A stretch of DNA of 64,000 bases from an uncultured virus (IMG/VR IMGVR_UViG_3300021400_003815) (IMGVR_UViG_3300021400_003815); one strand, 5' to 3'. Counted from the stretch's first letter, positions 8,085-62,939 are shown. Translations and numbers: made by a program. The notes: generated by a model from the sequence alone, not told the origin.

Positions 8085-8097
8085 CATACTTTAATCT

Positions 8098-29289: not shown

Positions 29290-29320
29290 AAAAAATGGGA
29301 CATTTTTAAATGCCCCATTT
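29290..29320 (-). terminator. Terminator
   Basis: Minus strand AAATGGGGCATTT...AAATGTCCCATTTTT. Confidence 0.75.
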
Positions 29321-29337: not shown

Positions 29338-30219
29338 TTACTGCCCACCATACTTATTAGCAAGTATCTGTTTAAACTCTTTAGATGTCACAATCTGTAT
29401 ATCATAACCCTTTTCCTGCATTCTCAGAGCTTTCTTATACTTATTACTGCCTGTATCTCCATCAGCTATTAGATAACTAACTTCACCAGTAACACTATTT
29501 AATCTTACTATACTTACCTTGCCTTCATACATAAGATTAAGTTCATTTACAAATGCTGATTTATTACTATATCCTTCAACACTATCTGTTATAGCTATCT
29601 GTAATCTATCCCCAGACTTCTTTTTAATATTGAAGTATTGCTCTGCAAACTGCAATTCTGCTTTATAGTCCATCAGAGTATTATAGATGTTAACAGCCAT
29701 AACACCTGAACCACCACTTTTCTGTCCAAGCTTTTCAGCTATAAATGGAACCTGATACTTCTCAATATCAGCATAAGCATCAGTTATATTATCATACTCA
29801 CCAAATAACTTATATGCTATGGTATCAATTCCAGGTATACCACCATAGGCCACCATCTGCCACAATTCACAGTTAATAGCTGGACTATGTGTTATTCCAT
29901 AAACTTTCTTATCAAAGGCTGCTACACCCTCTGGAGCCGCTTTGCCCTCTAATAAAAATACTTGATATGGTGACTTCAACTTATATGCTGAACAAATAGC
30001 TTCACAGGTACTTTCACCAAATCCATCAGCCTGCATTGCTTTAGCCATGCCCTCTAATCTAAATGCAATCTTATGATAACATCTTGGATTAGAACACATA
30101 ATCTGTTTTAAACTGTCTGAGAATACTACTTCAGCTCCACACTCACAAGTTTCTGGTATAATATCTAGTATATCAGGGTCAATTAACTGATTGTTCTCAA
30201 CTTCTTCACGAGTAAACAT
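29338..30219 (-). CDS. ligA: NAD-dependent DNA ligase, C-terminal half (Zn finger, HhH, BRCT)
   Basis: IPETCECG...IMCSNPRC Zn finger; DGFGE and GIPGID HhH motifs; IAITDS...SVTGEVSYLI...GSNKYKKA...IQIVT BRCT; own GGAGG RBS. Confidence 0.8.
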   Translation of the reverse strand: MFTREEVENNQLIDPDILDIIPETCECGAEVVFSDSLKQIMCSNPRCYHKIAFRLEGMAKAMQADGFGESTCEAICSAYKLKSPYQVFLLEGKAAPEGVAAFDKKVYGITHSPAINCELWQMVAYGGIPGIDTIAYKLFGEYDNITDAYADIEKYQVPFIAEKLGQKSGGSGVMAVNIYNTLMDYKAELQFAEQYFNIKKKSGDRLQIAITDSVEGYSNKSAFVNELNLMYEGKVSIVRLNSVTGEVSYLIADGDTGSNKYKKALRMQEKGYDIQIVTSKEFKQILANKYGGQ

Positions 30220-30268
30220 TTATATCAACCTCCACAAAAATTTTAAATAATTCTTTTCCTATAAATAC

Positions 30269-30305
30269 ATAAGAGGTACACAATTTCATTATGTGTACCT
30301 CTTAT
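30269..30305 (-). terminator. Hairpin ending the pilin cluster
   Basis: TAAGAGGTACACA/TGTGTACCTCTTA inverted repeat. Confidence 0.75.
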
Positions 30306-30319
30306 AAACCCTACATTAT

Positions 30320-31402
30320 TTAATCACCAGGTACTAATTCCTCACCAAGGTCTGTATTAATTAAATTATAGATATATGTGTAATCAGGTGTATATCCAGA
30401 TTGAGCCGCATCTTCAATAGTTGCAAATTTTTCTCTTACGTCCAATGTACTAATTACAGTGCTTGGTATTTGACTCTCATAGCAATATAATTTTCTATCT
30501 ACACCATTTATCTTTCTAACATATCCTATAACTTCAACTCTTCTAGCAACCTTAAAACCACCAAGTGATACTTGTCTCCTTGTAACTTTTCCTGTAAAGT
30601 CACCACCATTAAATATAAACAACAAACTTGGATAATTTATGCTATTTATACCTGACTCAGTGTCCTTCATAGGAATATAAAAATTATATGTTACACCACC
30701 TTGCATCTGATATTTCTTTTCAATAGCATCTCTAAGATTATCAGTGATTGACTTACTTATTGCTCCTCTTACAAGTGTATCATTTATCTTATAACCTGTC
30801 AGCTTACTAGCATCTTCAGCTTTAGTATAGTCTGTAAAATATACTGGAGTTCCATTATTCTTTAGCAATATTCCTTGTCTATCTGCTAAATGCACACTAT
30901 AAACTCCTTTAATACCACTTGCTTTTTGTTCTGCTTCTGTCAATGCTTTTGAGTTATTATATACTGTTAAAGTATAAGGTCTTTTCAATGACCACATCAA
31001 AGGATGTATTGTATTCTTACTTTCATCCTGTATTGACTCAAAATCAGATATGTAATATCCATCATTACAAGCCATTAGAGCTGCTACTATATTATCTTCA
31101 ACAGCTTTCATATTTGCTTCACTAGTTGACATGTTATAATTTATACACATCATTCTTTCAAATATGTCTAATGAATTTTCAGGATTGAGTGTTATATTAT
31201 ACAAGTTGCTATAATCATTTTCAAGAGTTCCAGTATCTACAGCCTCAAGAAATGCTGCTTCAGTACAATAATCTAAAGCTGTGTCTAATCTCTTTGTATC
31301 AAATGCTTTATTTATCAAATCTGTTCTATTATAAGTTATTAACAATGTATAACTTAATATTACAAATGTTATTGTATTTAATATTGGTCCAAACCATTTC
31401 AT
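30320..31402 (-). CDS. Minor pilin-like protein (TadE/G-like)
   Basis: N-terminal hydrophobic helix then RLDTALDYCTEAA helix; last gene of the cluster. Confidence 0.55.
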   Translation of the reverse strand: MKWFGPILNTITFVILSYTLLITYNRTDLINKAFDTKRLDTALDYCTEAAFLEAVDTGTLENDYSNLYNITLNPENSLDIFERMMCINYNMSTSEANMKAVEDNIVAALMACNDGYYISDFESIQDESKNTIHPLMWSLKRPYTLTVYNNSKALTEAEQKASGIKGVYSVHLADRQGILLKNNGTPVYFTDYTKAEDASKLTGYKINDTLVRGAISKSITDNLRDAIEKKYQMQGGVTYNFYIPMKDTESGINSINYPSLLFIFNGGDFTGKVTRRQVSLGGFKVARRVEVIGYVRKINGVDRKLYCYESQIPSTVISTLDVREKFATIEDAAQSGYTPDYTYIYNLINTDLGEELVPGD

Positions 31403-31414
31403 ATTTAAACACCT

Positions 31415-31888
31415 TTAAGAAACTACCTTTGCAAATGTAAAATCTGTCTGCCTAAGCTCTATCTTTAATAATCCCCAATACAATTTACTAGCTGCATCTT
31501 TAGATATCTCCTTAACTGCAACTCTAACTGTATCACCCTTATTTAAGTTATGTACTACCTGACTCGGGTCAGTTGCTACATTAGCATCAGCAGATATATA
31601 CATTGTTTTCATTTTACCATCAGGAGTTACTACACTTGTTCTAACAAGTCTTGTTACTTCACAATCAATGGTTATTCCATGTGAGTTAAGATTCATATTA
31701 AGCTCATCTATATCAGCTTGTGTTATCTTACCCTTATCTGTGACCTTATCCAAAAACTCTGAAGTCTCATTCATTATTGATAGCTGAGCTGCACCTCTAT
31801 CATTCAAGAAACTTAAATTTATAGGACCTAACACTAATATTAAGAAAGCCAGCATTAAACTAAATATAGTATTCAAATAATTTGTCAT
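31415..31888 (-). CDS. Pilin-like protein
   Basis: 157 aa, N-terminal TM helix plus small alpha/beta domain; within the Tad-like locus. Confidence 0.55.
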   Translation of the reverse strand: MTNYLNTIFSLMLAFLILVLGPINLSFLNDRGAAQLSIMNETSEFLDKVTDKGKITQADIDELNMNLNSHGITIDCEVTRLVRTSVVTPDGKMKTMYISADANVATDPSQVVHNLNKGDTVRVAVKEISKDAASKLYWGLLKIELRQTDFTFAKVVS

Positions 31889-31907
31889 TTCATATCTCCA
31901 AATCTAC

Positions 31908-32450
31908 TCAGTCTACTTGTTTTATTTCAAATGTCTCTACATTAGATACATTTTTATTTATTACATTTACATCTCCCTCATCTGATTCACCAGTACCAAG
32001 CTTAATGCTACCATTTTCATTTAATAAGTATGCTCGTTCTTGCTTATATGTCTTTGTATAACTTACATCAAACTTAGTATTATCACCATTTGAACCTATA
32101 GCTTGCCACATAGCTTGCAAATAAGAATATTGAGCACTTCTACTTAAACTATTTATCTCTAACAGGTTACCGTTATAACCTAATGATTTAGGAGAAGGCA
32201 TCATACTGTCTTGTATTTGAGTCATTAGCACAACCTCATATTTATTAAGTGTACCTGCTTTCTCATTATGTAATGCAACTTTGCTACCTACTATATCATT
32301 TGTATTTTTATCTTCATATATGTAGCTAGAACTTGTTTTGCTTATATGATTTTCAGAATTAGCTAGTGTCATAACTCCAATTCCAAGAGACACACCCATA
32401 ATCAATATAAGTAGCATAGCCTCAAATATATCACTTGAGTTCTTATCCAT
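31908..32450 (-). CDS. Pilin-like protein
   Basis: MDKNSSDIFEAMLLILIMG N-terminus paralogous to neighbours. Confidence 0.6.
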   Translation of the reverse strand: MDKNSSDIFEAMLLILIMGVSLGIGVMTLANSENHISKTSSSYIYEDKNTNDIVGSKVALHNEKAGTLNKYEVVLMTQIQDSMMPSPKSLGYNGNLLEINSLSRSAQYSYLQAMWQAIGSNGDNTKFDVSYTKTYKQERAYLLNENGSIKLGTGESDEGDVNVINKNVSNVETFEIKQVD

Positions 32451-32470
32451 AAACTCTCACCACCCTATAT

Positions 32471-32884
32471 TTAATCTATGTTGTCTACAGTTATATTATA
32501 TAATGATGTTGAAGGGTCAAACTCAACACTCATTTTACACCTGCCTGTTAAGTGACTTCCTATACAAGTCTTTTCATTTGCCTTATATGTATGCTCTCTA
32601 CCATCAGAATGTAGATTTGTAATCTTACAGGTTATTGTTCCAATAACATTAGCATTTGTATTGATTATATTATAAGCTGTAGCCATACTCATTTCTTTAC
32701 TATCATCTCTCAAATCTATAAGAGCTGCTGAATCCATCTCCATTTGCATCTTGTCAACTTTATTAGCAAAGTTATTTTTATACCCGTTACCTATTACTAC
32801 TAGATACATAACTAATCCAATAGCTGCTCCAAGTAATACAAAGGTAGCTCCAGCCCATATAGCATCTCTAGCATTATTACCCAT
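32471..32884 (-). CDS. Pilin-like protein
   Basis: MGNNARDAIWAG N-terminus closely similar to 34793-35539. Confidence 0.65.
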   Translation of the reverse strand: MGNNARDAIWAGATFVLLGAAIGLVMYLVVIGNGYKNNFANKVDKMQMEMDSAALIDLRDDSKEMSMATAYNIINTNANVIGTITCKITNLHSDGREHTYKANEKTCIGSHLTGRCKMSVEFDPSTSLYNITVDNID

Positions 32885-32899
32885 ATCTTAATACTCCAA

Positions 32900-33700
32900 T
32901 CATAAATGTTCCCATACTGCATATAATGTAACTGTTGCTCCATCTACAGAAGTTAACATTGAACCATCAGCTTCATCTTCTAACTCCACAGGACCTCCAG
33001 CTTTTCTACTCCAACCTATAAACCTATATCCTGCTTTAGAAAATATATTCTCTAACAAAGGAGTTGCTGACTCATAAACCATTGTCTGCACAGGCATTTC
33101 AACTATAGCAGATATACCTGTATCATTTCCATTACCATTAAATTTTATCTTATAACTTACTGTATTATCAAATATAAACTTTAAATCTCTTACATCATAT
33201 CCCTCGATGTGACTATAATACACTGAATCAGTAATTCCAATATCACTGTTTAGTATTATATGGTCAGTAAGATATTTCAAAGTCCATATCTCATCTCCAT
33301 CTTTACCAGCATCAAATAGTTGTCTAGCTACATCACCACTATATTCTCTATATTTCTTTCCGTTGAGTTCTACAATACCAATTCCTGTCTCACTCTCATC
33401 TTTAACAGCTACATAGTACTTAAACTCATCATTATACTTTAATATAAGATTTACTATATCTGAACCAGATACTTTTCTTTTACTATGTAGCCCATCAACT
33501 TCTCCGCCATCTTGTGTTTTATTACTGAATTTATATATTAGCTGCTGTAATTCAAATTCTCTTACAGCTGCTTGATTCATTTCTCTACTCTTTATTATTC
33601 CTTTTCCAACACCATTTAAGTATATCAGAAATAACATTACAGTTGAGAATATCATAGCTAGTACTCCAACCTTCAGTAATGTACTTGAATTTTTCTCCAT
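32900..33700 (-). CDS. Pilin-like protein with C-terminal InlB B-repeat (Listeria-Bacteroides repeat)
   Basis: MEKNSSTLLKVG N-terminus; YKIKFNGNG...FSKAGYRFIGWS...GATVTLYAVWE. Confidence 0.7.
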   Translation of the reverse strand: MEKNSSTLLKVGVLAMIFSTVMLFLIYLNGVGKGIIKSREMNQAAVREFELQQLIYKFSNKTQDGGEVDGLHSKRKVSGSDIVNLILKYNDEFKYYVAVKDESETGIGIVELNGKKYREYSGDVARQLFDAGKDGDEIWTLKYLTDHIILNSDIGITDSVYYSHIEGYDVRDLKFIFDNTVSYKIKFNGNGNDTGISAIVEMPVQTMVYESATPLLENIFSKAGYRFIGWSRKAGGPVELEDEADGSMLTSVDGATVTLYAVWEHL

Positions 33701-33721
33701 ATCTTCTACCTAATAAACTTA

Positions 33722-34138
33722 TCAGTCTTTTATCTCTTTTATTACCGGAACTAATGTAACATTCTCAGCCCAGCATGTTTTATTCACTTTCTTTCTAATG
33801 TTATCATAATCTTCTATCTTGATTCCCCTAGCCTTTAATATGCTAGGTGTTGTATAAAATGTTCCATCTTTATTTAACTGTCTTAAATAACACTCTCTGT
33901 ATCCACTATATATTAACTTCATAGCTAATACAGTTTTCTTAAGTATCTTTCTGTTTTCCTCAGAGTCTATAATCCAAAGACCTGATATACACTCAGGACT
34001 TAACAGAAGCTTTCCACCATGCTTTATATATTCAAGTGCCGCCTCTTGGTCACAACTGAATACATTATAATTAGGATTAGCCTTTACTATCTTTAAACCT
34101 GTGCCCTTAAAATCTACTATTGATATACCTTGTACCAT
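33722..34138 (-). CDS. Hypothetical cytoplasmic protein within the pilin cluster
   Basis: 138 aa, no TM helix. Confidence 0.65.
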   Translation of the reverse strand: MVQGISIVDFKGTGLKIVKANPNYNVFSCDQEAALEYIKHGGKLLLSPECISGLWIIDSEENRKILKKTVLAMKLIYSGYRECYLRQLNKDGTFYTTPSILKARGIKIEDYDNIRKKVNKTCWAENVTLVPVIKEIKD

Positions 34139-34155
34139 ATTATATTACTTCCTTT

Positions 34156-34662
34156 TTAATTATTTCTTACAAACTTTACTGCTATACCTGTTACTTCTTT
34201 GTAACCATCTGAACTTTGATATGATGTAATTTTCTTTGGGTCAGCTCCATTATAACAAAGATATGTATGGAACTCTGCCTTAGGAGATATCAACTTTTGT
34301 AAATTCTCATAAGAATATAATGTCTTGTTCTTTACATATTCACTATGATTACATGTCAAACTTCTACCTGAACCAGACGTTTTATCAATGTAAATAGTAA
34401 AATCAGTGTTATAATACTTTCTTATAAGCTCTATTAATTCATCCCCATAGATATGGTCTTTAGCTGATGCATTATAATCTCCCATATCATATTTGTTAAA
34501 TTCTCTGAAATTAGCCATTTGCTGATTTACTAGAGTCTTGCTATTAATTATATTAGCATACTTATTTTTAAGCTGTACACCAAATAAAAATATTAACATT
34601 ATAGAACCTAGTATTGCTAAGCTAAATCCTAACATCAATGTATCTCTTGAGCTGTCAACCAT
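34156..34662 (-). CDS. Pilin-like protein
   Basis: MVDSSRDTLMLG N-terminus; FNKYD...IYGDELIELIRKY motif shared with paralogs. Confidence 0.65.
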   Translation of the reverse strand: MVDSSRDTLMLGFSLAILGSIMLIFLFGVQLKNKYANIINSKTLVNQQMANFREFNKYDMGDYNASAKDHIYGDELIELIRKYYNTDFTIYIDKTSGSGRSLTCNHSEYVKNKTLYSYENLQKLISPKAEFHTYLCYNGADPKKITSYQSSDGYKEVTGIAVKFVRNN

Positions 34663-34693
34663 TTTCTTTCATCTCCTTCCATCTCCTTTACAT

Positions 34694-34728
34694 AAAAGAA
34701 ACTCAGTACATAATATACTGAGTTTCTT
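34694..34728 (-). terminator. Terminator/attenuator after the putative major pilin
   Basis: AAGAAACTCAGTA/TACTGAGTTTCTT stem with T tail; second hairpin TATACTGAA/TTCAGTATA near 34734-34757. Confidence 0.75.
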
Positions 34729-34792
34729 CTTCATATACTGAAACTCCATTCAGTATATCATTATTCAATTTTTTAAAACTTTTAATTCTTAA

Positions 34793-35539
34793 TTACTTCT
34801 TCTCAGAAATCTGGATGAATACTACTCCACAATATGCTCCAGAAGCATCCTTAACAACATAGCTGTTAAATCTTGATGTAGGAGCGATGTACTCTAACAT
34901 ACCAGTCTTTGAGAAATTCTTAATAATTCTGTTCTTCTGAATTACTGAGTTCTCTACTGTGAAACCAGCCTGGCAATAGAACTGACCTTCTCTGAAAAGA
35001 AGCTTGTTACCATTTGAACCACTTGATGCTGCACCAGTATCAAGTAAGCTACCATAGTTGATTAAGTAACAATCAACACTATTGTTTATAGCACCATCAA
35101 CCTTAAATTTTCCGTCTAAACCAGTTATACCATTTGCACTGTCGTTATTAAATACGTATACCTTCTTAAGATATCCACCCTGTGAATCAGCTGTCTGAAG
35201 TCTACTATTCTTATCTCCATAAGCATCAGTAATTCCCTTGCCAGTAGATACACCGGAACCTTTGCTATCAATAAGCTGTGATGTTCCGATAAGAACTGCT
35301 ACATCACTATCTGAGAATGTGTTGTAAGCTGAAACAACCTGTGTACCTGTTACTACCTTCTGGTCGAAATCAGTAAAATCACTGTCCTGCAGTGCAGTTA
35401 CTGTTTTCTGAACTCTGTTTGTACCTGTATTCATAAGTGTCTTACCAATTACGAATACTAGAATAATAATTGCGATAATGGCTGCTGCCATTGTCAAGTT
35501 GGAACCGGTAAATATACCTTCTCTTGCATTGTCACCCAT
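34793..35539 (-). CDS. Putative major pilin-like subunit
   Basis: MGDNAREGIFTG plus hydrophobic helix; FTDFDQKVVTGTQVVSAY; strong AAAGGAG RBS; first of the cluster and followed by a terminator. Confidence 0.65.
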   Translation of the reverse strand: MGDNAREGIFTGSNLTMAAAIIAIIILVFVIGKTLMNTGTNRVQKTVTALQDSDFTDFDQKVVTGTQVVSAYNTFSDSDVAVLIGTSQLIDSKGSGVSTGKGITDAYGDKNSRLQTADSQGGYLKKVYVFNNDSANGITGLDGKFKVDGAINNSVDCYLINYGSLLDTGAASSGSNGNKLLFREGQFYCQAGFTVENSVIQKNRIIKNFSKTGMLEYIAPTSRFNSYVVKDASGAYCGVVFIQISEKK

Positions 35540-35692
35540 ACGTTAACTTCTCCTTTATAAATTTTTTGAGTGTATTTTTGTATAAATTCATATCTTCTTC
35601 TAATAATATAATCAATATTAATTTATACACACATTTACACCGTACAGCCTATTCTAAACACCCTCGTTTTATAAAGAAGATTATAACATTTA

Positions 35693-37705: not shown

Positions 37706-37716
37706 TTTGCTCTACC

Positions 37717-39510: not shown

Positions 39511-39545
39511 ATTAATCCTTAAAACTCTTTCATTCTTTAAAATTT

Positions 39546-39575
39546 TAACAGCCTACACATTTATGTAGGCTGTTA
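39546..39575 (-). terminator. Hairpin between tadA-like gene and endonuclease
   Basis: TAACAGCCTACA/TGTAGGCTGTTA; U-tail is weak. Confidence 0.6.
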
Positions 39576-39597
39576 CTCATTAATTTTTCATCAAGCC

Positions 39598-41646: not shown

Positions 41647-41667
41647 CCCTTAATTTCTCCATTGCTT

Positions 41668-42501: not shown

Positions 42502-42523
42502 TTTTTCTACTTCCTTTTCTATC

Positions 42524-43189: not shown

Positions 43190-43213
43190 TATATGTCTAT
43201 CTCCTTAAATACT

Positions 43214-43301
43214 TGTGGATAACTCAAGTCTCAAGTAAGTCTCAAGTCTGTCTCAAGTCTTAAACTCTCTGCACTCTCAATCTGCCCTCAAGTTATCCGC
43301 A
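43214..43301. repeat. CTCAAGT direct-repeat array bracketed by inverted DnaA-box-like 9-mers
   Basis: CTCAAGT at 43223, 43230, 43241, 43252, 43287 (CTCAATC at 43276); TGTGGATAA at 43214 and TTATCCGCA at 43293. Confidence 0.8.
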
Positions 43302-43317
43302 TCTCCCTCATCCTACT

Positions 43318-44301: not shown

Positions 44302-44317
44302 CTTTCCTCCAACCTTT

Positions 44318-46157: not shown

Positions 46158-46231
46158 AATAAAACCTCTTCGTTTTTATATCATATATAACTTCAAATAT
46201 AAGCATATTTAACACTACATTAAAATAAACT

Positions 46232-46262
46232 AAAAGGACTCATCATTTCTGATGAGTCCTTT
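46232..46262 (-). terminator. Terminator after the giant gene
   Basis: AAAGGACTCATCA/TGATGAGTCCTTT. Confidence 0.85.
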
Positions 46263-46279
46263 CATATCTCCTATTAAAT

Positions 46280-55200: not shown

Positions 55201-56806
55201 CATTTATACTAACAGTAACCTCATTTCCAATAGTTGCAAGTAAGTCAGAACCCTCATGCCAGTTACCAAGTCCATTTGTATAATATCTAAGGGTTTCACT
55301 CTCATTGCTGTTGCCCTTATTGAACATCTTGTTATTATCAGTTTCATGCCAGACATTACCTATAACTCTAGTAGTATCTGTCATTAGACCATCAACACTG
55401 TTGCCCCAATAAGCTGTAACAACAGCATTTTGAGACTTTTTATATGTCTCCATAGGTAATCCCATGATTACCTCTAAGCCCTGATGTGTTCCTTTACTTG
55501 TGCTAATTGAAATATCTTCAAGAGCCTTAAAGGTACCACTAGTGATTGTCTTATCTTCAGGATCTTTTGTTACTAAATAACCTAAAAGTTCATTCCAATA
55601 TTTATTGTCTCTCCAATAGCCTTCCCTAAGTCCATTTTCTCTACTCTTATTAAACGCATTTTTCAGAATGTCTCTAGTATTTATTACTGACTGCTTAAAA
55701 TAATAAGAAGCTGCACTCTTATTTCTAACATCATTGCTTGCATCAATTCTATACAGATAACTAATAAGGTCTGCTGCATTTATAACAGTTAAGAAATCCT
55801 GATTTGAAACAGCCTCTGTCTTTTTAGTTCCCCAAATGAGACCTCTTGATAATACAACGTTAGTTTTGTTATTTGACTGTAATCCTAACTTTCCACCACC
55901 GTCAGAGTTCAAATAAAGAATAATAGCATTTCTCCACTCTGACTCTGCTGCTGTTCCCTTAGATACACTATATAAACTCATCAGCATATCTAAATAATGT
56001 ATAGACTGTATCTGCTTATCCTTAACTGACATACTAGCTGTATTTCTAATTGTACTTATGCTAGTCTTAAACCATTTGCTATACATTACATCTTGTAATG
56101 AACCCTCATTATACATATCAGATAATGTACACCAAATCTCAGTATTATTAGCTTGAGATACCTTGTCTACAACACTCTCAAAACCGTATCTACCACTTGA
56201 ATCTTTTTCTAATAGTTTCTCAGTAGCTATACCACTTTTAATTTCTGTTGAACTATCAGATGTAGACCAATAAGCTGACCAATAAGGGTCTTTAATTTCT
56301 ACTCTAGAACCCTTAGTTGACCTTACAAGTCTCTTATTATTAGCAATGTTAGATGTGGAAAGAGTATTATTGCTATAAATACCCCAAAACTGATTCTTAT
56401 ATTTAGTAAATATATTATTATTTGAATAACTAGAACCAACAATAGCTAAAGAGCTATCGTTAGAACCCATTAATCTACTACCATAAAAATCATAAATTCC
56501 ATCAACTCCACTATTGCTTGAGTTTAAATCCAAAAATGGTGCCCCTTCATCATCATTGTCCAAAGACACAATAAGTGGAGCTCCTTTCTGAGTTCCACTT
56601 GGATTTAAAACTTCTGGATTTGTTAAATCTGCTCCACCACCAATGTATGGATTGAACCCATCAGGAGTTTTACTGATATTATCTGCACTAACAGTTACTC
56701 CAAAAATTGAAAGTGTTAGATATATCATTAGTGTCAGTAACCAAACAGACGAAGCTACTAACCCATTTTTAACTAAGTCTCTTGTACTTAATCTAGCACT
56801 TAGCAT
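46280..56806 (-). CDS. Giant exported protein (3508 aa) with LamG-like and two glycine-rich domains; putative adhesin or substrate
   Basis: AAGGAGG RBS; N-terminal signal/TM; FNYTGGTQYYTVPETGYYRIDAYGASGG...IIVAGGGGG...GGGGSSY-type domain twice; Cys/His-rich motifs. Confidence 0.8.
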   Translation of the reverse strand: MLSARLSTRDLVKNGLVASSVWLLTLMIYLTLSIFGVTVSADNISKTPDGFNPYIGGGADLTNPEVLNPSGTQKGAPLIVSLDNDDEGAPFLDLNSSNSGVDGIYDFYGSRLMGSNDSSLAIVGSSYSNNNIFTKYKNQFWGIYSNNTLSTSNIANNKRLVRSTKGSRVEIKDPYWSAYWSTSDSSTEIKSGIATEKLLEKDSSGRYGFESVVDKVSQANNTEIWCTLSDMYNEGSLQDVMYSKWFKTSISTIRNTASMSVKDKQIQSIHYLDMLMSLYSVSKGTAAESEWRNAIILYLNSDGGGKLGLQSNNKTNVVLSRGLIWGTKKTEAVSNQDFLTVINAADLISYLYRIDASNDVRNKSAASYYFKQSVINTRDILKNAFNKSRENGLREGYWRDNKYWNELLGYLVTKDPEDKTITSGTFKALEDISISTSKGTHQGLEVIMGLPMETYKKSQNAVVTAYWGNSVDGLMTDTTRVIGNVWHETDNNKMFNKGNSNESETLRYYTNGLGNWHEGSDLLATIGNEVTVSINGKLNNNVDVSNIIDNNDKFKVKIELSRTANNSAGIAMNTVNYLINGKGYTNNSVVDLSYLGWNKDNLRRFLLGQQPFNLIEDDSTQDQKISNGSTTTLNYKVYVTVYYGTKDSGMSEIRIGGQSNNITAKRIDYPVKAEGIQHTSFHSKPKAYAEIKEGTVQTGSGTSSNETWEAMAGVPSTETLYFAAGGSEFILELHMSYIPKERSRRYYHSQFSGTACEYKEADKAGTYSESGYTGGNDLGWIANQGNSGGGGANVIPTINKNFGSGEASVQSESYTFNVHTGGQMSITIGGTIHNDAPDTVAADGMGDVTANNPHKSRPADMQSRVAAYQALTKWTQEVANTSIYYTASSDNVTRQIKLGGNGCSISLPAMPTNEPADTSASDGHNSHDEGDPPHEVLDPAHAEAQKGADVTWTVTATVKIPAHVICGPCCEHDLPAIEDNWTQIAEYSYMRIDSVKTWKIDRAYVDGMNKITYTKQNNVVADMVQGDPNIYYFIGDENKDYYNESKKQLDYYQSHGEIPDRTFAEHVARAGRVVYSLEPDQYDSVGWNEGTRSNRCNGDQGCFTRCSTNPFRVAAGSGRKNIKNTQAEAKGSSGTSNCNKNDQKGQVWSCGALYTNTNRTTNDETWWYHHVRGDKISGATTNNTIDRYDMETPEVLRFKHRRELWNYITVVSDFLILQTTQGDEVAYYNSSVQWRSADNNFDYDADAAASKNVKNIGSDTTPYWHHVYFWTDGDAAPGGTASFGGVWKQITKMDDNLNESGAIAESTGASINSNQPHELTIYGYNAAAGAYRDNDWSRSNNRNLSSDGYGDDYLKRTFDQMWTDFKLPDGVVASKWDITDEIPVSGYNGKFNSPLRKFSSLSAGGNTTVVHEMNGKWKHNEPIDDFIGLHYNNDGSYGDQGDGIVCIKMIPEIDDCAVRELNGLNTRRFSSEFVRDSLIDKTGNNLVVKPTDGHESRFIGTQGSGSPMNVINYGYRTVNYESGHYVNADFDGASYNNGKWSRSIGGMDSKNYQYKVTQYKSSPYTTSSSGQSLDGAHEDVGSTHAEYRIKRPNESLKIFTDRVHPWPVQNGWENDKKTYEHGIRQDATNENGEYVTGNAYVFYRQILDYTRPSMEDGNTNFQYDYSNSNIAALGNKSGIAIKAVYSDEHDKVNNIVVQDPVSLEEAFLIGLDDERDQRSGGANLAVKLMNDLEASKVCPGTAALCEYRHLNCKYFDDVVLGTFNVSGGKLVNTKTGRSYSMPSGFSTSEGGVKLGGVRLSIPFSELNYAYNASSNIQVEFSAKIPKKVNNTFMLVSFKQYDLYNTDWGTVINTGRGNERGVPNNYRDNLWHKYKVIFNMDTAESSKLYIDDMEVDYKTVGTSNKLSANMVGNYFNIGCWNADDNYGKSNAIIKDLKITKLAARGTHVSSCYKTEEVHSTTVQYVAIPKKFNYTGGTQYYTVPETGYYRIDAYGASGGDNLSGVKIAAPSAGGLGGYASGEAYLLKGQRLAINVGGQGGLNKAGWNGGGTSAGSGYGGGGASDVRATRVFTLNDKMKEGGNDTYVKGGHITYGPYITVPSGTYNVTIYGAGLNDSTIVLDTMTNNGVSYGRYIASNGSNTGLNNLSVSYNKISYSVNINKNVAEGADGAGLEFRIFHNGRSYRFDRIEVSSSDVNNRIIVAGGGGGADNAGGVFNNTDDGSGGYGGGLTGGNPKQDGARVGGLVGTQNSGYALASGQGRTDTDAGGGGGGYFGGKAGTNGNTGGGGGSSYISSVRNGYTTYGVRKGDGQVVITALDPENSPASERKVVSSINNKHVHKESCVVGTSEAYKQNAALIGAFYQDAQNDSTALKALLGNTVYNLYKSSSYNQTDLTGRVDFGYSASAQKFTAKSAGNYTFDVYGASGGGNSAGHESAGGLGGRVTASKYLNAGESVYIYTGQAGGGSGSIGSNWNYGPYMGGGKGGPGGFDGGGMTLVSTSPNESIKSGNRLTTTYVAAKNYYQVIPVYGDGTYKVLEFYSELEATYPSLTFHSTNGHMSNFYLVDTSNGSTIADTGNVHTGSYDPVDATMTNVHFNAGHTYELYVHSDCSNFTGTCGAGFTINGGNVEVLENTTTGTFTPGKALIIAGGGGGADNTDYSGTVQGGNDDGSGGAGGSDGNIGNPLVNGARQSGLYASYRQGAGESTTKNTDTGGGGAGWYGGKSTNNNNGGAGGGSNYTGSGVTLAAQYSGVNSGNGKVIITYVSEADLQKIYNAIVNIVAKNVNKLPSTVNGAKNPVFICDGTYNTHVCDSRCKVEKHLTCSDPHHKNPAEHYPGSNPICWEPCGYTDPNDPNNPHAHHDKDIVVDGVTKKAGKFLNIDYGFQVYFPNTGDFEDDPDLRGIGAVTQVKGMSYKNNMDTTKWLREKRIKFGYDVLFYNPTTGKWEEYKANTWIPLPILKDSSKFDTDYSEFSSPEWFKQHALEVYDFYVTMSNVDIAGARYDFEIEAVNAEHSAGGKSAVYNRKVVNRTEERNIDNVSTLSNSARNNALSAKHSASKHGFTDIVGRIGNLLITDTDDIRFANLFKLPVEGTWLIDGVVKGVNSGIQNNYLSWHNNSDGRWLDIRGVQVTPERGMYNTWMTENWAEDKDWAASHGSIIGSKDVPLPLTSDKNNVTQLLADMFKPGYNILYEISTLGSYSDNLQVIPYFYALDTKTNKLYPIDVYMKEEDEYVPINYYDVLPKTTDSSSEKAKKQKLINEEHKYVLSLDWAEEKERRNYTTQEKLITNYITDHYNYIIDDGGTRHKLNSPDTIVGTGHALGTIQLINADQYARTFIGSTYTRGENFNATAVDDSNTGVFSPISVGGGTHYTNLDNIIYRDRFWTNAQRWHLKLGLPSTAVFIKYNKDGIRHLPTEELVDESGNPIIKDGGEHKLKFEELQDKRYAIIMTAEIYAYGDTYTLKYDQKNLNGKAKIGNKTYTFGTNYNGQEIKGTIMAVYDAEGSSDLDVTIRGSH

Positions 56807-56824
56807 ACGCCCTCCTTATAAACT

Positions 56825-57097
56825 CTAAAATATACTATATACTACATATAAGCCAATTCCACCAGCTAACAGCAATATCAAAAGTAATAGCATATATTTT
56901 CCATTACTTTGTCCTAGTTCCTTGTTGCTTTCACCCTTACTCTTATCTTCTGCATCAAAATCATCAAATAGTGTTATCTCTCTAACAGAACCAGTCTTAT
57001 TAGGTTTATATAGTATAGTTTGGTCATCCCTCACATCCTGTATATTGTCTATCTTTACCCAAACATTTGATTCACCTTCTAATATATGTTTCGACAT
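56825..57097 (-). CDS. Small C-terminally anchored membrane protein
   Basis: 90 aa with hydrophobic C-terminal helix. Confidence 0.7.
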   Translation of the reverse strand: MSKHILEGESNVWVKIDNIQDVRDDQTILYKPNKTGSVREITLFDDFDAEDKSKGESNKELGQSNGKYMLLLLILLLAGGIGLYVVYSIF

Positions 57098-57102
57098 CCC
57101 CT

Positions 57103-57969
57103 TTAACTATTCTCCTTGTTTAATTTTAGTGTATATCTAGCTAGTAATTGATTTGTATTGTTATATGTTGATATGCTTAACTTATCAGTATTAATGTCAA
57201 ACTTAGCTACTCCATTAAGTATTAGCTTAACTATATCAGTTCTTCCCATTGAATACAGATTATCTTTATATCTTATATCAAATATCTGTGAAGTGTTATA
57301 TATCCTTATACGATGTTTTGTTAAATTTAACAGCTGCATATCTCCATATGTAAAGCTGCTTAATTCAAGCTTTATATCTTTATTTAACATGTATATATCT
57401 TTTTCGTAAGCAACTATATCTAATTGACCAATGGCAGTCAATTCAGTATTAACATCATATATACATTCACTACTGTCCAAAAATAAACTTATTCTGCGTA
57501 TACTTTTCTTAGTTCTTATATCAGAAACATCTATATTGTATATATCTTCTGTATTATTGAATATAACAGTATTATCAGTAGTATCTATTTTTACACCCTG
57601 CACAAAACCCTTATTAATATACTCAATTACTCTTCTGTTATCAATGTCTACTCTCTTTCCATTAGTATGCTCTAATATATAACCAACAGTTTCATACCTA
57701 TCTATTAATTCTCCTACTATTTTAAACTTACCTTTATACTTATCAGCACTTACGTCTATAGTTTTTATAGGTATGTTAGACCTATTTGTTATTATGCTTT
57801 GACCTCTAAATGTAGTGATAGAATAATCATTTACCATACCTTTAGAAACTAGTTCATATAGTTTCTTCTCTGATATTCTATATATTTTACCGTCATTAGA
57901 CCTCACAGCATAAGCATATATATTCTTTCCGTTAGAGTATTGAGCTACAACATTAAATTTCTTCTCCAT
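57103..57969 (-). CDS. Hypothetical protein with two copies of the recurring module
   Basis: FNVVAQYSNGKNIYAYAVRSNDG...LYELVSKGMVND and FKIVGELIDRYETVGYILEHTNG...VIEYINKGFVQG. Confidence 0.7.
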   Translation of the reverse strand: MEKKFNVVAQYSNGKNIYAYAVRSNDGKIYRISEKKLYELVSKGMVNDYSITTFRGQSIITNRSNIPIKTIDVSADKYKGKFKIVGELIDRYETVGYILEHTNGKRVDIDNRRVIEYINKGFVQGVKIDTTDNTVIFNNTEDIYNIDVSDIRTKKSIRRISLFLDSSECIYDVNTELTAIGQLDIVAYEKDIYMLNKDIKLELSSFTYGDMQLLNLTKHRIRIYNTSQIFDIRYKDNLYSMGRTDIVKLILNGVAKFDINTDKLSISTYNNTNQLLARYTLKLNKENS

Positions 57970-58040
57970 AACTCATACCTACTTCTATTATAAAATTTTT
58001 TATTATAAAATACAACTTAATGTATACGAAAATTATACAT

Positions 58041-58075
58041 AAAAAGTACCACTAAGGCTTATCCTTAGTGGTACT
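58041..58075 (-). terminator. Terminator
   Basis: AGTACCACTAAGG/CCTTAGTGGTACT with T-run. Confidence 0.85.
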
Positions 58076-58079
58076 GCAC

Positions 58080-58868
58080 TTACATATTACTAAGTTTGCA
58101 TCCGTTTAATACTATTACATTCCCATCTGCAAGACTTACATGTTGAGGACTGTCCTGTTCTACAGGTAAAGCTGCTATACAATCAGCATAATCATAATCT
58201 TCATATATTTCAACAGTTCCGTCTAAACTATTGTCAGTCTCAACTACATATTCCCCAGCTGGTACATGTGTTCCAACTAGAAATACTCCGCTTCCAGTTG
58301 TATCTAACTCAGTATCTAAGCTGACTATCTTGCAACCATGCTGTCTTATTCTATCATTTTCATCAACACTTATAATAGTATTATACTTAACATCACTGTT
58401 ATACTTTATACCTAAGATGTTTTCTTCATTACCTGACTCAATAGTTATATTGGCATCATCTTCAGTAGCCATAACTATGTAAACTCCAGGAGCTATTGTT
58501 CCATCTATATCTGTCTCATCATCATATTTCTCAGCTACAATATAAAGTTCATTGTAATACTCTTTAGTATTAGACTCAACTCCTATTATGAATGTCTTTT
58601 CAAACTCTTTATTGTCTGTGAAGGTTATCTTTGACTGCCCATTAGATAGGCCTGTTATATTTCCATGTTCATCCACTCTTGCTACATCTGTATTATCTGA
58701 TGTCCAGCTGCCTGTCACTTCATTTCCGTCATCATCAGTAATAAGTATCTTAGTTGTTTCACCAGCTTTAATAACTTCACCATCTGATGAAATATTGTAT
58801 GCTAATGAATAAACACTGCTATACACAACACCTATGCTTACAATCAATGTAAAAATTAATCTTTTCAT
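58080..58868 (-). CDS. Secreted protein with Ig-like (Big_2) domain
   Basis: Signal peptide; WTSDNTDVARVDEHGNITGLSNGQSKIT; IAPGVY and VPAGEY repeats. Confidence 0.75.
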   Translation of the reverse strand: MKRLIFTLIVSIGVVYSSVYSLAYNISSDGEVIKAGETTKILITDDDGNEVTGSWTSDNTDVARVDEHGNITGLSNGQSKITFTDNKEFEKTFIIGVESNTKEYYNELYIVAEKYDDETDIDGTIAPGVYIVMATEDDANITIESGNEENILGIKYNSDVKYNTIISVDENDRIRQHGCKIVSLDTELDTTGSGVFLVGTHVPAGEYVVETDNSLDGTVEIYEDYDYADCIAALPVEQDSPQHVSLADGNVIVLNGCKLSNM

Positions 58869-59560
58869 TTATTACCTGCTTCATACATATGTATATACTT
58901 ATTTACCAAATCTGTATCTTTCAAATCTTCTGATGTATGTTTTCTATTTTCATCCATATTATTCATAAATTTTATAGCCACACTTGTTTTTGTGAATGAA
59001 CTATCATCTTCCACATCAGAATAATATTCTTTATCATCTTTTATACAATTTAATATATTGTATATATTATTTTCTGTAGTGTCTACCTCATTTAGTTCTA
59101 ACAGTATATTATCTATAGTTCTAGTGTTAAGTAATTGATCTGAAGACTCCAACACACTTGTTGCCTTACTATCATTATATAGCTTTACACTTTTTACTAT
59201 ATAGCCAGTATTAAGTAAACCAGCAATTATATTTAATGCTATAAGACTTATTAATACACACTCAGCTGTATTCCTCTTAATAACATTGCTCTGTACAACC
59301 ATTATATAAGCTAATGTAGCAAGTATACAACATATAGCTGTATTTATATAGTTTGTTACATTGTTTATCATAATCATACTTGTTATAGCAGATATAAAAG
59401 CTGCTATAACAAAGTATTTTTGATTTACTTCATATAAATAACTTGCTTTATACAATATTACTATAGCTATCATAAGAAATGTTAGCTTATTTACAAATAC
59501 AGCTGGTATCAAAACTGACAATACTGTTAAAAAATTAATCTTATTATATCTAGTACTCAT
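58865..59560 (-). CDS. Multi-pass membrane protein
   Basis: Several N-terminal TM helices and a soluble C-terminus. Confidence 0.7.
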   Translation of the reverse strand: MSTRYNKINFLTVLSVLIPAVFVNKLTFLMIAIVILYKASYLYEVNQKYFVIAAFISAITSMIMINNVTNYINTAICCILATLAYIMVVQSNVIKRNTAECVLISLIALNIIAGLLNTGYIVKSVKLYNDSKATSVLESSDQLLNTRTIDNILLELNEVDTTENNIYNILNCIKDDKEYYSDVEDDSSFTKTSVAIKFMNNMDENRKHTSEDLKDTDLVNKYIHMYEAGNK

Positions 59561-59612
59561 TTATATTATCTTCCTAAAGCCATTATTTTAAATCTTGATT
59601 GCTCTCTTTATA

Positions 59613-61604
59613 CTAAGCCTGCTCTTGAGGTGCATTCTTACCTGGCTTTCTTCTGCCTATACCAGTGTTAGGATGTTCTTTCTTAAACTTCTCTCTGTTC
59701 ATTCCCTTCATAGCTGCACCATTACGAATTACAGAACCTAGATGAATAATTCTCTTAAATCTTCTCTGTTCATCCTTAAATAACTCTTCACTCTTATATA
59801 ACTCTTTAGCCTTATCACTAATATCGTCATAATTATCTTTTAACAGCTCAGGGTCTATATGTAAATCTCCAGTTCCATGTAAATGAACAAGTCTATGACA
59901 AGCTACACATAGCATAATTCCATTCTCTACAGTGTCTTTACCACCAAGATAAACTGGTAATATGTGATGATAGTCAAGAATATCTACAAACTGACTTCCA
60001 CCCTTCTTACAACACTGACATACTGAACCATCTCTAGCCATAACAGCTTTCTTAATAGCCGGGTCAATATATTCTCGCTCTCCAACTTTCTGCTTGTGAG
60101 CTTCATAACCAGGAGTATCATCAGCTTCTTTAGCTGCATCTGCAAGTGAAATATTGTCTGAATCACTATCCAACTGTGTAGGATCTATTGCTAAACTCTG
60201 TATCTGTTCATCAGTAAGAGCACTTCCTTCATCACCAGTCTCACCTGTTTCTTCAATAGCATCTGCACCGCTCTCTTCTGTATCCCCATAAACCTTAGCT
60301 GCTTTCTTAAGGTCTTTTTCTTCCTTACTCTCTTTAGAACGACGCTTTTCCAACTGTTTAAACGCTTGACCTATTGTCATTTGACCATTCATCATCTTAG
60401 TTACAATGTCCTCATCATCATCACTAAGAATATCCTTAAGTTTATTATAGTCACCATTATCTAACTCCATAAGGAACTCTATCAAACTAGGATTGGTTAT
60501 GTTTTTCTCTTTCTCAAGATACTCAATGTAATCAACAATATCTCTCATGGTATATTGCTTTTTATGATTGTACATTGCTTCAACAATAGGAATCTCAGCT
60601 GTTTTAATCTTATTATTAACTATAGCAGGCACATCAGTTATTCCAGCCTTAGCACAAGCAATAATTCTTCTGTATCCATCTATTAAAACATACATACCCT
60701 CAGTAGCAGTAGGAGCTACTACAATAGGATTCAGAAGACCAGTACTCTTAATACTCTGTAATAAATCTTCTACATTTACTCCAGACCTTACTCTCTTAGA
60801 TACACTTATTCTATCAAAAGGAAGTATCTTTAAATCAAAAGTATCTTCTACACTTCCTTTATTCATAACACTAAGGTTACCATCACTATCTAAGAATGAA
60901 CTATTACTCTCATCAGCTATATTATTTACATCATCTGATTCATCACTTTCACTCTCAGAACTCTCAGTCTCAGCTTCAGCATCTTCTGAAACTTCATTCT
61001 CTATATTAGAGTATCCTTCATCATCTACTTCTGACTCATTAAACCCTTCATCAGTTCCAGCTTCAAGTCCATCAGACTCGCTTAGCTCATCAGATTCCAA
61101 ATCACTACCACTTTCTGATTCACCAAGTCCATTAAAGTTCCAATCTTTATCTTCATAAGATTCACTTAACTCATCTTCTGACTCCAAGCCTTCACTGTCT
61201 GACTCACCCTCACTCTCATCTGCTTCTTCAAGTTCATCTAAATAGTAAGGATTTCCATTATCATCAAAACCTACTTCTCTACCTGATGTATCAAAGGTTC
61301 TACCATTATCATCTGTAAAATAATCAGTTGGTACACTATAATCTCCAGTGCCCTCTTCTTCACTATTTACATCTATATTAGCTGACCTAGCTAAATTATC
61401 TATGTCATCTATATCACCTAAGGAGTCAGACTCAATATTATCTAAGTCAATCTCTTCATCTTCAATAGCATCCCCATCATCAATATCTGCACCTTCATCT
61501 AGCTCATCTGAATCACCAAATCCAAATATTGAGCTATCATCTTCATCATCATTGAGTCTTAAACTTGTGCTATTGATATCTTCATTACTTACTTTCTTGT
61601 CCAT
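59613..61604 (-). CDS. ParB-like protein with acidic N-terminal tail and C-terminal HNH domain
   Basis: LLQSIKSTGLLNPIVV...LIDGYRRIIAC (ParB/Srx); RDGSVCQCC...DYHHILPVYLGGKDTVENGIMLCVACHRLVH (HNH). Confidence 0.85.
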   Translation of the reverse strand: MDKKVSNEDINSTSLRLNDDEDDSSIFGFGDSDELDEGADIDDGDAIEDEEIDLDNIESDSLGDIDDIDNLARSANIDVNSEEEGTGDYSVPTDYFTDDNGRTFDTSGREVGFDDNGNPYYLDELEEADESEGESDSEGLESEDELSESYEDKDWNFNGLGESESGSDLESDELSESDGLEAGTDEGFNESEVDDEGYSNIENEVSEDAEAETESSESESDESDDVNNIADESNSSFLDSDGNLSVMNKGSVEDTFDLKILPFDRISVSKRVRSGVNVEDLLQSIKSTGLLNPIVVAPTATEGMYVLIDGYRRIIACAKAGITDVPAIVNNKIKTAEIPIVEAMYNHKKQYTMRDIVDYIEYLEKEKNITNPSLIEFLMELDNGDYNKLKDILSDDDEDIVTKMMNGQMTIGQAFKQLEKRRSKESKEEKDLKKAAKVYGDTEESGADAIEETGETGDEGSALTDEQIQSLAIDPTQLDSDSDNISLADAAKEADDTPGYEAHKQKVGEREYIDPAIKKAVMARDGSVCQCCKKGGSQFVDILDYHHILPVYLGGKDTVENGIMLCVACHRLVHLHGTGDLHIDPELLKDNYDDISDKAKELYKSEELFKDEQRRFKRIIHLGSVIRNGAAMKGMNREKFKKEHPNTGIGRRKPGKNAPQEQA

Positions 61605-61721
61605 GTAACAATCTCCATATAACTAGATTAAAATTTTTTATTAAATACTATATCATTTACTACTAAAAGCTAACAATATAGACAATCTTTTAATCAAGTC
61701 TGACCTTACTACTCAAAATCC

Positions 61722-62939
61722 TTATCTATCCATCTCTGTTACTTTGTTACCATATCTGTCACAAAGACTTACACCTGTTTCACCACCAAATAAGAAGTAC
61801 ACTGTAGAACCAGGAAGTATATGTAATCTCTCCATTACTCCTACATTATACAATGGAACATTCTTTACTTCTGCTCCGTTACTTGTTCTCACTGGTGTTA
61901 CTATAGCCTTAGGAGTTATATACTTCTTACCATATATCCACTGTATTCTCTCTACAACTGATGTATAGACCTTTGTTCCCCACTTGGTTCCCATCTTCAA
62001 TGCGAAGTTACCTAACCAAGTATTACCATTTGGTCCTAATCCATAGAACTCAGCATCATTATTGATACCAACTACAATACCATCTGTATCATATGGAATT
62101 AACCCCTGCCTCTGTACATCCTCAAAGTACTCAATAATCTCATAGATTTTATCCTCGAAGTTATCAGCCCCTAAATCATCAAACTTCTTATAAATAGGAG
62201 TCTTAAATCCACACTCCTTGAGCTCTATAAACTCATCTTCAAGGCTATTGAAATGAAGATTGTCCAAATCATCACCAATGATAATCTTATAGCATACAAC
62301 ATCTAATAGCTGCATCTCAGCTTCACTAGCTGACTCTCTAATTAATGATGTTACTGCACTTAAAGGATTCTTAAGTATATGCTTAACCTTTTCAAAGTTT
62401 TCAAAACTTACAAGAGCCTCACCTCTAACCTCAAGAAGTTCTATATCTTTCCACTTGTCAACATATTCTGGCATAATGTTCTTAAGTGTTTTAGTTATGT
62501 CTCTACCCTTCTTAGTTCTGCCTCTTGTACTTCCACCTACAAGCTTTCCATACCTATATACAGCTCTAATGGCATGCCCATTAAGCTTTGTGCTAGCCAT
62601 CATAGTGTATCTCTTACCTGTTTTAACAAGAACATCCTTAAAATAATTAAGATCCTCAATATCCTTTATGGTATTTATACTCTTCATACCATAAACCTTT
62701 AGAATATCATCATATTCTGTAAAGTCCTCATCTTCAACTTCCCAGTTTCTTGTAAGTATCAAACTATCTGGCTTAAGTTCACTAAGAAGTTTTCTGTACA
62801 TATCATAAACTTCATCAGTTACTTCAGCATCTCCCATGCCAGCTGCATCCTGCAAATGTGCTACATAATTTTCCAGTGCATCCACATCAGTTCCAAATCC
62901 AAGCTCATTCAGTTTATCCATAAGATTCTCATTAATCAT
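61722..62939 (-). CDS. ligA: NAD-dependent DNA ligase, N-terminal half (Ia, adenylation and OB domains)
   Basis: VTDEVYD; MKSI; TKLNG...STRGR..GRDIT; LEVRGE; NP; YDTDGIVV; ALK; ITPKAIVTPV; LYN; ends after the OB domain. Confidence 0.85.
   Translation of the reverse strand: MINENLMDKLNELGFGTDVDALENYVAHLQDAAGMGDAEVTDEVYDMYRKLLSELKPDSLILTRNWEVEDEDFTEYDDILKVYGMKSINTIKDIEDLNYFKDVLVKTGKRYTMMASTKLNGHAIRAVYRYGKLVGGSTRGRTKKGRDITKTLKNIMPEYVDKWKDIELLEVRGEALVSFENFEKVKHILKNPLSAVTSLIRESASEAEMQLLDVVCYKIIIGDDLDNLHFNSLEDEFIELKECGFKTPIYKKFDDLGADNFEDKIYEIIEYFEDVQRQGLIPYDTDGIVVGINNDAEFYGLGPNGNTWLGNFALKMGTKWGTKVYTSVVERIQWIYGKKYITPKAIVTPVRTSNGAEVKNVPLYNVGVMERLHILPGSTVYFLFGGETGVSLCDRYGNKVTEMDR

Follow-up and report, generated by a model that had tools for sequence, protein, structure and literature searches.

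Two distant genes on a giant extrachromosomal element as candidate subunits of one heterodimeric NAD-dependent DNA ligase

We analysed a 64,000-nt stretch of DNA from an uncultured virus (IMG/VR IMGVR_UViG_3300021400_003815); this whole stretch is called the window in the following. On its minus strand it carries two widely spaced genes, which together hold the domains of a nicotinamide adenine dinucleotide (NAD)-dependent DNA ligase of the LigA type:

61722..62939, minus strand: ligase N-half, 405 amino acids (aa), ATG start; domain Ia, nucleotidyltransferase domain (motif I K118-L-N120-G121) and OB fold
29338..30219, minus strand: ligase C-half, 293 aa, ATG start; conserved leader of ~20 aa, Cys4 Zn finger, HhH and BRCT domains

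The stop of the N-half and the start of the C-half are separated by 31,502 bp. Each gene possesses its own ribosome-binding site, GAGGAAA ahead of the ATG for the N-half and GGAGG, 8 nt ahead of the ATG, for the C-half. The first-pass annotation of the window had described two genes on the same strand, in N-to-C order, 31.5 kb apart and each with a ribosome-binding site, all of which was confirmed. We read the two open reading frames (ORFs) as encoding the two chains of a single heterodimeric NAD-dependent DNA ligase, which would belong to the replication module of a giant (~170-480 kb) extrachromosomal element, and give this reading a probability of about 0.78.

The N-half matched the Pfam family DNA_ligase_aden over residues 84-296 (E 2.3e-20) and the profile phrog_3869 ‘NAD-dependent DNA ligase’ at positions 27-366 of 656 (E 2.3e-47). 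Its residues 24-386 align to residues 19-381 of E. coli LigA (4glx_A, E 1.6e-12), i.e. from domain Ia through OB, and K118 falls onto K115, the lysine nucleophile of the E. coli enzyme. A profile of the N-half family also found E. coli LigA (E 3.3e-20), with an alignment reaching chain residue 381-386, such that an OB fold follows the nucleotidyltransferase domain. The C-half had no match in Pfam. Its best PHROG was phrog_3498, which it covers end to end (positions 5-255 of 256, E 2.5e-14), and it further matched positions 391-653 of 656 in phrog_3869 (E 7.6e-7), the C-terminal part of this full-length ligase profile. An AlphaFold2 model of the C-half had a mean predicted local distance difference test score (pLDDT) of 89.6 and retrieved LigA structures as best Foldseek matches (9a6z_B, E 2.4e-8; 9hu3_B, 3.6e-8; E. 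coli LigA 2owo_A, 3.5e-4), while BRCT domains matched the C-terminal part of the model. The profile of the C-half family matched a single solved structure in sequence, 9hu3_B, with E 3.9e-12. The four cysteines C25, C27, C42 and C47 are invariant in the 26 aligned C-half members, and four cysteines are present in all 120 C-half relatives among the matches listed. ORFs, Pfam, PHROG, alignment to LigA and fold matches thus agree with the domain content previously assigned to the two genes, the N-half covering the domain Ia-OB portion and the C-half the Zn-BRCT portion of the full-length profile.

Both genes belong to families that are conserved as separate genes. For the N-half 1,058 relatives were found at E <= 0.001, and all 120 that were listed are 397-424 aa long at 51-99% identity. 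The length range of this search would have admitted a fused form of ~700 aa, and none was found among the 120. A search among longer proteins returned only ordinary full-length LigAs, 26 in number, at 23-30% identity. For the C-half 170 relatives were found, the 120 listed ones all having 287-353 aa. An exhaustive search with the C-half profile gave 920 representatives of clusters at 50% identity at E <= 0.001 (129 of them at <= 1e-30); the 150 matches listed span 84-534 aa, all under 600 aa, and where the longest extend N-terminally, the extension shows no match to the N-half. Among the matches listed from the N-half search, the search of longer proteins and the exhaustive profile search, no fused relative exceeded 30% identity. 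One N-half match each is present in the complete relatives G001 and G002, and the domain of ATP-dependent ligases, PF01068, is absent from both (0/2). A single-protein scan of the viral contig collection found no relative, and neither did a scan of genome contigs with the family alignment, which gave no isolate genome or host.

Within the N-half family a set of motif positions is strongly kept. Invariant in the 29 aligned members are K118, N120, G121, R139, E174, D286, G287, K315, D42, Y45 and D46; the Asp-Gly of motif IV and the Lys of motif V are likewise conserved. Among the 120 N-half matches listed TRGR is kept in all, and RGE (motif III) as well as D-x-x-Y-D in 117 each.

Wherever the sequence of an element allowed a search for both halves, both were present. 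The distance matrices of N-half and C-half over 19 elements were correlated with a Mantel r of 0.958, a value reached by 0 of 2,000 permutations. This rules out discordant phylogenies, which had been named as a possible objection. Weighing more than the Mantel r, in our view, is the behaviour of a clade formed by G002 and G003, in which both halves have diverged faster together, to 0.61-0.64, compared to 0.48-0.49 for the nuclease gene that lies next to the N-half (ParB-HNH, see below). The G002 N-half (L014 3907-5046; C-half at 7518-8105), the one N-half of this clade that was aligned, has lost the TRG and RGE motifs, and its motif I reads K-I-V-G. In both G002 and G003 (L015) the C-half has 195 aa and lacks the BRCT domain. 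From these sequences the ligase pair of this clade looks like a decaying or repurposed one, with the ParB-HNH gene between the halves staying well conserved.

For a contact between the halves we turned to complex prediction. The pair of N-half and C-half reached a score of 0.65 versus 0.11 for the best of three controls; the docking mark is attained by 116 of 157 solved complexes and by 2 of 215 mismatched pairs. The docking runs agreed in at least 94% of the contacts, with a partner pLDDT of at least 85. The predicted interface joins residues 332-376 of the N-half (OB) with residues 13-54 of the C-half (Zn finger and the ~20-aa leader) and includes V361-G367, the most conserved stretch of the N-half. 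The modelling supports that the halves bind each other, with OB placed onto the Zn finger. LigA fragments without the C-terminal domains self-adenylate yet do not seal nicks, from which the N-half is expected to need the C-half. According to the review PMC5052709, OB and HhH of LigA are positioned by the Zn finger, both DNA strands are bound by HhH, and the enzyme can do without BRCT.

In the arrangement that we propose the N-half would bring the chemistry, with the domain Ia that binds nicotinamide mononucleotide (NMN), the lysine nucleophile and the OB fold. The C-half would contribute the Zn finger, the HhH clamp on the DNA and BRCT. The subunits would join non-covalently by packing of OB on the Zn finger and the family-specific ~20-aa leader of the C-half, and the assembled two-subunit enzyme may encircle nicked DNA as single-chain LigA does.

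Ligases of this kind have a precedent, of which the first-pass annotation was unaware. Bacteriophage T5 is annotated with subunits A and B of an NAD-dependent ligase in the annotation given in PMC3632103. In the T5 record ligA (323 aa, adenylation and OB) is directly followed, ~200 bp on, by ligB (259 aa, Zn finger to BRCT), and in a T5-like Vibrio phage one 98-aa ORF lies between them. PDB entry 9hu3, with 9i5i as companion entry, is titled ‘PR1 phage heterodimeric DNA ligase in complex with 21-mer nicked DNA containing phage nick sequence’; our literature search found no publication on this heterodimer. The T5-like LigA/LigB pair shares with the window the break at the OB|Zn boundary, the common strand and the N-to-C order. 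It differs in that its identity to the window halves is only 22-23%, that the T5 genes are adjacent whereas here ParB-HNH intervenes and up to 31.5 kb lie between the halves, that T5 keeps K-L-D-G and the equivalent of Arg200 whereas the window family has K-x-N-G and Leu, and that T5 LigB lacks the conserved leader of ~20 aa. Compared to single-chain LigA (E. coli, 2owo/4glx) the domain order Ia-NTase-OB-Zn-HhH-BRCT (NTase, nucleotidyltransferase) as well as the lysine, TRG, RGE, the Asp-Gly of motif IV and the Lys of motif V are the same. Unlike there, two polypeptides are found here, Asn replaces the Asp of motif I, Leu replaces Arg200 and a Tyr-His pair is lost. Among annotated phages, the N-half was best matched by four ligases of large phages, each encoded in one piece (639-680 aa). 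We regard the window family as a divergent variant of the T5-like heterodimeric NAD ligase, set apart by the HNH gene at the split, the almost invariant K-x-N-G of motif I and a gap of variable length, and notable also for the size of the family. The two-subunit ligase proposed in the first-pass annotation is supported by the length-conserved families, the lack of a close fused form, the co-inheritance, the predicted docking and this T5-like precedent.

The sequence between and around the halves comprises the following features:

62990..63979, minus strand: two small conserved ORFs upstream of the N-half, with homologs upstream of the N-half in relatives
59613..61604, minus strand: ParB-HNH, a gene for a 663-aa ParB-N and HNH nuclease protein (Pfam ParB_N E 5.1e-10, HNH E 2.4e-8), directly downstream of the N-half
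30320..59560, minus strand: variable 29-kb block of ~22 genes between ParB-HNH and the C-half
46280..56806, minus strand: gene of a giant 3,508-aa protein (ALK_LTK_GRD E 5.8e-19, 4 stretches), which marks the block in relatives

Besides the giant glycine-rich protein the block encodes an Ig-domain protein, an M23 peptidase, a SAF-domain protein, a T2SSE-like ATPase, a 597-aa HNH-type protein and others.

Twenty related loci carry the C-half on the strand of the N-half, 1,590-3,726 bp further downstream; this count leaves out L013, a duplicate of L048, and includes several loci that are near-identical to one another. The order in these relatives is N-half, ParB-HNH, 0-2 small ORFs and C-half. 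A ParB-HNH homolog comes next after the N-half in 26 of the 27 relatives' loci with at least 1.1 kb of downstream sequence, and in L032 no other gene separates the halves. Across the family ParB-HNH has 485-677 aa at 41-57% identity; the small ORFs in the gap of the relatives (153-469 aa) matched no Pfam or PHROG family. The exception is L056 (9489-11775), in which a homolog of guanylate kinase rather than ParB-HNH follows the N-half and the contig ends soon after. In whole-record synteny G001 shares the order upstream ORF, N-half, ParB-HNH, C-half and, further on, SmpB, while the block at 30.3-59.6 kb of the window is without counterpart at that place. Homologs of the giant protein were found by tblastn a few genes past ParB-HNH in L030, L037 and L057, such that the block is present in 4 of 24 informative elements (the window and these three). 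The bearers are scattered on the N-half tree, requiring 3 changes of which at least 2 are forced by supported branches; the slot between ParB-HNH and the C-half hence behaves as a site of recurrent gain or loss of a large module. No convincing pair of direct repeats was seen at the block borders (29300-61700), the nearest one (D16, 36 nt, 72% identity) being at chance level. From these comparisons an old gap of ~2-4 kb was secondarily widened to 31.5 kb, specifically in the lineage of the window. The split would then be ancient in the lineage, with N-half, ParB-HNH, 0-2 small ORFs and C-half as the ancestral order, and the slot may have turned into a hot spot of gene flux that in the lineage of the window took up a 29-kb Tad-like/giant-protein module.

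Next to the C-half two further elements were detected:

30268..30306, minus strand: RNA hairpin between the upstream gene and the ribosome-binding site of the C-half (minimum free energy -23.6 kcal/mol, z -6.61)
29293..29320, minus strand: terminator-like hairpin with a 12-pair stem and a T-run, right past the C-half stop

None of 200 shuffles was as stable as the upstream hairpin. The terminator-like hairpin is the sole such site in 28000-32000, where shuffled sequence gave a mean of 1.0, i.e. its presence alone is not above chance. Sigma-70-like promoters around the C-half were not above shuffles either (22 versus a mean of 20.8). The strong hairpin before and the terminator-like hairpin after the gene suggest that the C-half in the window may form its own small expression unit of hairpin, ribosome-binding site, gene and terminator. 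No RNA run was listed among the sequencing runs that contain the window. Two RNA runs of the sample of sequencing run X1 (see below) gave 0 and 1 contig matching the window, none of them on the ligase halves. Directly downstream of the C-half lies a tandem pair of SPFH/Band 7 genes (27241-29264, minus strand), and a sigma-70-like promoter match that is perfect (12/12) is located at 29264-29236.

A number of observations count against an active two-subunit ligase, or take force from the evidence given for it. The OB domain of the N-half was found by Pfam with E 0.0012 and 19.1 bits, below the cut-off of 32.9 bits. Motif I reads K-x-N-G in 119 of the 120 N-half matches listed and K-x-D-G in 1, whereas K-x-D-G is present in 14 of 14 aligned canonical LigAs and in T5 LigA. 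The position of E. coli Arg200 is occupied by Leu or Met in 117 of these 120 matches. We take Y22, H23, D32, Y35 and D36 to be the NMN-contacting residues in domain Ia of E. coli LigA; the Tyr-His pair is replaced by Ala-Gly or Ala-Ala in 10 of 12 family rows and by Ser-Ala and Tyr-Ala in the other two, while D-x-x-Y-D of this domain (D42, Y45 and D46) is kept as given above. D117 is among the residues listed as essential for E. coli LigA in Table 1 of PMC5052709, and since the N-half family has Asn there, activity or cofactor could differ. Any two genes that share an element should show such a correlation of their distance matrices, and ParB-HNH distances gave r 0.92-0.95 as well; the Mantel r therefore speaks for co-inheritance and not for a specific co-evolution. 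Likewise, the docking pass may come from likeness, the model remembering LigA and 9hu3, which are both already solved, and not from a true affinity of the halves. In L030, L037 and L057 the C-half was not seen within the 9.8-10 kb of sequence, and these elements could lack one. Regarding the relation to the T5-type enzymes, the window family (support 100) and the T5-type (99) form separate clades in the N-region tree that are not sisters and have very long branches, the window family sitting on a stem of 2.71 changes per column, while the C-region tree is an unresolved trichotomy. These trees neither unite the window family with the T5-type split ligases nor exclude a shared origin.

One alternative is that the halves are no longer a ligase. 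The N-half would then be a nucleotidyltransferase that has taken on another role or lost its activity, the C-half would bind DNA or serve as a scaffold on its own, and the distance would be a sign of functional uncoupling. The departures in the active site are nearly fixed in the family, and G002 and G003 demonstrate that decay of the module is possible, with an N-half in G002 devoid of TRG and RGE and a C-half devoid of BRCT in both elements. The look of the C-half as a transcription unit of its own in the window and the guanylate kinase in place of ParB-HNH in L056 fit as well. Yet the lysine, TRGR, RGE, the Asp-Gly of motif IV, the Lys of motif V and D-x-x-Y-D are under strong constraint, the halves persist jointly wherever both could be looked for, the predicted interface uses V361-G367, and neither G001 nor G002 possesses another ligase. 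Moreover, the one family member with K-x-D-G indicates an interchange of Asn and Asp in motif I. K-x-N-G is present in active tRNA ligases. The residue pattern of the N-half fits better with a working but remodelled enzyme than with a dead one, and we consider a loss of the ligase function unlikely. Lys290, initially taken as a further active-site deviation, was dropped, as this position varies among canonical LigAs too.

The remaining alternatives are far less probable. The first-pass annotation had suggested that the split possibly arose when the intervening block entered an uninterrupted ligA between OB and Zn finger. In the window the block is indeed flanked by the two halves, which share a strand and run from N to C. 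However, the 20 related loci are already split at 1.6-3.7 kb without the block, the constant intervening gene is ParB-HNH and not the block, the presence of the block needs 3 changes on the tree, and no fused relative was found among the matches listed. G001 has the shared gene order without the block at that place, so the block did not create the split. Of the earlier interpretation the two-subunit ligase is supported, while its origin by block insertion, for which the spacing in relatives had been named as a check, falls and is highly improbable. An assembly artefact, by which a chimeric metagenome contig would have set the C-half 31.5 kb from the N-half, is slightly less probable still. The contig L029, of which the window is a part, comes from short-read metagenome data, and the only full match among the sequencing runs, X1, possibly derives from that very sample. 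In a separate assembly of X1, a contig of 56,994 bp matches 29246-43900 without a single difference at an even depth of 18.3, which joins the C-half to its neighbouring block genes in one piece; another X1 contig spans 24000-29275. As X1 may be the source sample of the window, the contig counts as a second assembly and not as independent data. In addition, the contigs L030, L037 and L057 show ParB-HNH followed by the giant-protein module, strand, GC content and skew are uniform across the window, and fragments of low depth from a different study (X2) match the C-half and block genes at 90-99% likeness. Least probable of all is that a split intein or trans-splicing joins the halves into a single-chain LigA at the protein or RNA level. 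Only the shared strand and order speak for it, whereas each half has its own ATG and ribosome-binding site and M1 of the C-half is invariant among the aligned family members. The Pfam scan found no Hint or intein family in either ligase ORF, with no intron search in Rfam being made. On the N-half side 19 residues remain beyond the last one aligned to the OB domain of E. coli, and 24 residues precede the first Zn cysteine of the C-half, leaving no room for an intein at either side of the break. The earlier remark that no intein signature is visible thus holds.

If the halves form one two-subunit ligase, the question arises how the gene became split. In T4-like phages genes split by free-standing homing endonuclease genes include Aeh1 nrdA with mobE, the T4 topoisomerase gene 39-60 with mobA and gene 43 of phage 25 with seg; according to the review PMC2988022 the halves reassemble into an enzyme, and split nrdA was shown to be fully functional. 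The window resembles these cases in that a nuclease ORF (HNH here) lies between the halves of a replication enzyme made as separate polypeptides. It differs in that the nuclease is a large fusion of ParB-N and HNH that diverges in step with the ligase halves, for which reason it looks like a long-resident gene rather than a recent invader. By analogy to mobE and mobA, a free-standing HNH endonuclease gene may have inserted at the OB|Zn linker and split ligA, a scenario that we hold to be somewhat short of an even bet. About equally likely, the split would be older, perhaps shared with the T5-type LigA/LigB, and the nuclease gene would have entered the spacer later. Because the nuclease is as diverged as the halves and there is no unsplit relative, the HNH-driven split can only be inferred; no close relative was found with an uninterrupted ligA that could prove the insertion.

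The window is part of the 167-kb metagenome contig L029. All its real genes are on the minus strand, its GC content is ~31% with a GC skew of -0.2 to -0.44 throughout, and no tRNAs were found in the 64 kb. Other recognisable genes encode SmpB, guanylate kinase, an NlpC/P60 hydrolase and two SPFH proteins. The small ORFs at 62990..63979 link the N-half to a replication module beyond the end of the window, where L029 carries two topoisomerase II subunits and a DnaB-like helicase upstream of the N-half. Since the same arrangement is found in G001, we assign the ligase to the replication module. Among the relatives G002 is a 264.6-kb record with terminal repeats, and contigs reach up to 483 kb. 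The 250-kb G001 (L016-L028) has 109 of its 112 ORFs of at least 260 aa on one strand. It carries a full replisome set, FtsK-like and ParA-like proteins, a transposase and many GIY-YIG and HNH homing-endonuclease-like genes; of the 100 large ORFs scanned, none had a match to capsid, terminase or portal PHROGs at E <= 1e-8. Though it stems from a viral collection, G001 may be either a plasmid-like element of giant size or a phage whose structural genes cannot be recognised.

A two-subunit NAD ligase would, on the reading favoured here, not be a quirk of T5-like phages but the fixed state in a large and diverse family on giant gut mobile elements of up to several hundred kb. It would offer a natural test of how a clamp-shaped multi-domain enzyme functions when it receives its DNA-binding half in trans, and of whether the Asp of motif I is replaceable by Asn. 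With a conserved nuclease gene exactly at the split, the origin of split replication genes becomes testable outside of T4-like phages. For annotation it means that a single enzyme can be spread over a ‘truncated LigA’ and, tens of kb away, an ORF of 290 aa without annotation. T5 genomes carry site-specific nicks. A much more speculative extension, to which we attach little probability, is that N-half, ParB-HNH and C-half form a conserved ‘nick-and-seal’ module in a large undescribed group of giant single-strand-coded gut elements. HNH would nick site-specifically and the remodelled heterodimeric ligase would seal under control, with the C-half, on a hairpin-gated unit up to 31 kb away, timing ligase assembly relative to replication or transfer.

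Several minor features of the region were recorded. The X1 assembly breaks at 29246-29275, a 30-nt overlap between the terminator hairpin of the C-half and the SPFH gene, with depths of 18.7 and 18.3 on the two contigs. Residues 1-230 of ParB-HNH are extremely acidic and of low complexity, rich in Asp, Glu and Ser; this is the least conserved part of the protein, and tblastn matches start at residues 94-237. The gene of the giant protein contains internal DNA repeats coding for Gly/Pro-rich sequence at 48.6-50.3 kb. The guanylate kinase gene of the window is located at 7441-8046. A full SmpB gene (22725-23183, minus strand; Pfam E 6.5e-54) has a copy in G001 at 54% identity, while no tmRNA or tRNA was found in the window. 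Finally, a family of ~600-aa proteins (window 37717-39510, minus strand; G001 L025:10465-12447 and L026:18066-19892) matches phrog_3339/559 ‘homing/HNH endonuclease’ with E 5e-85. It occurs in several copies per element, and the copy of the window contains three 57-nt repeats, 165 nt apart (38929-39315).

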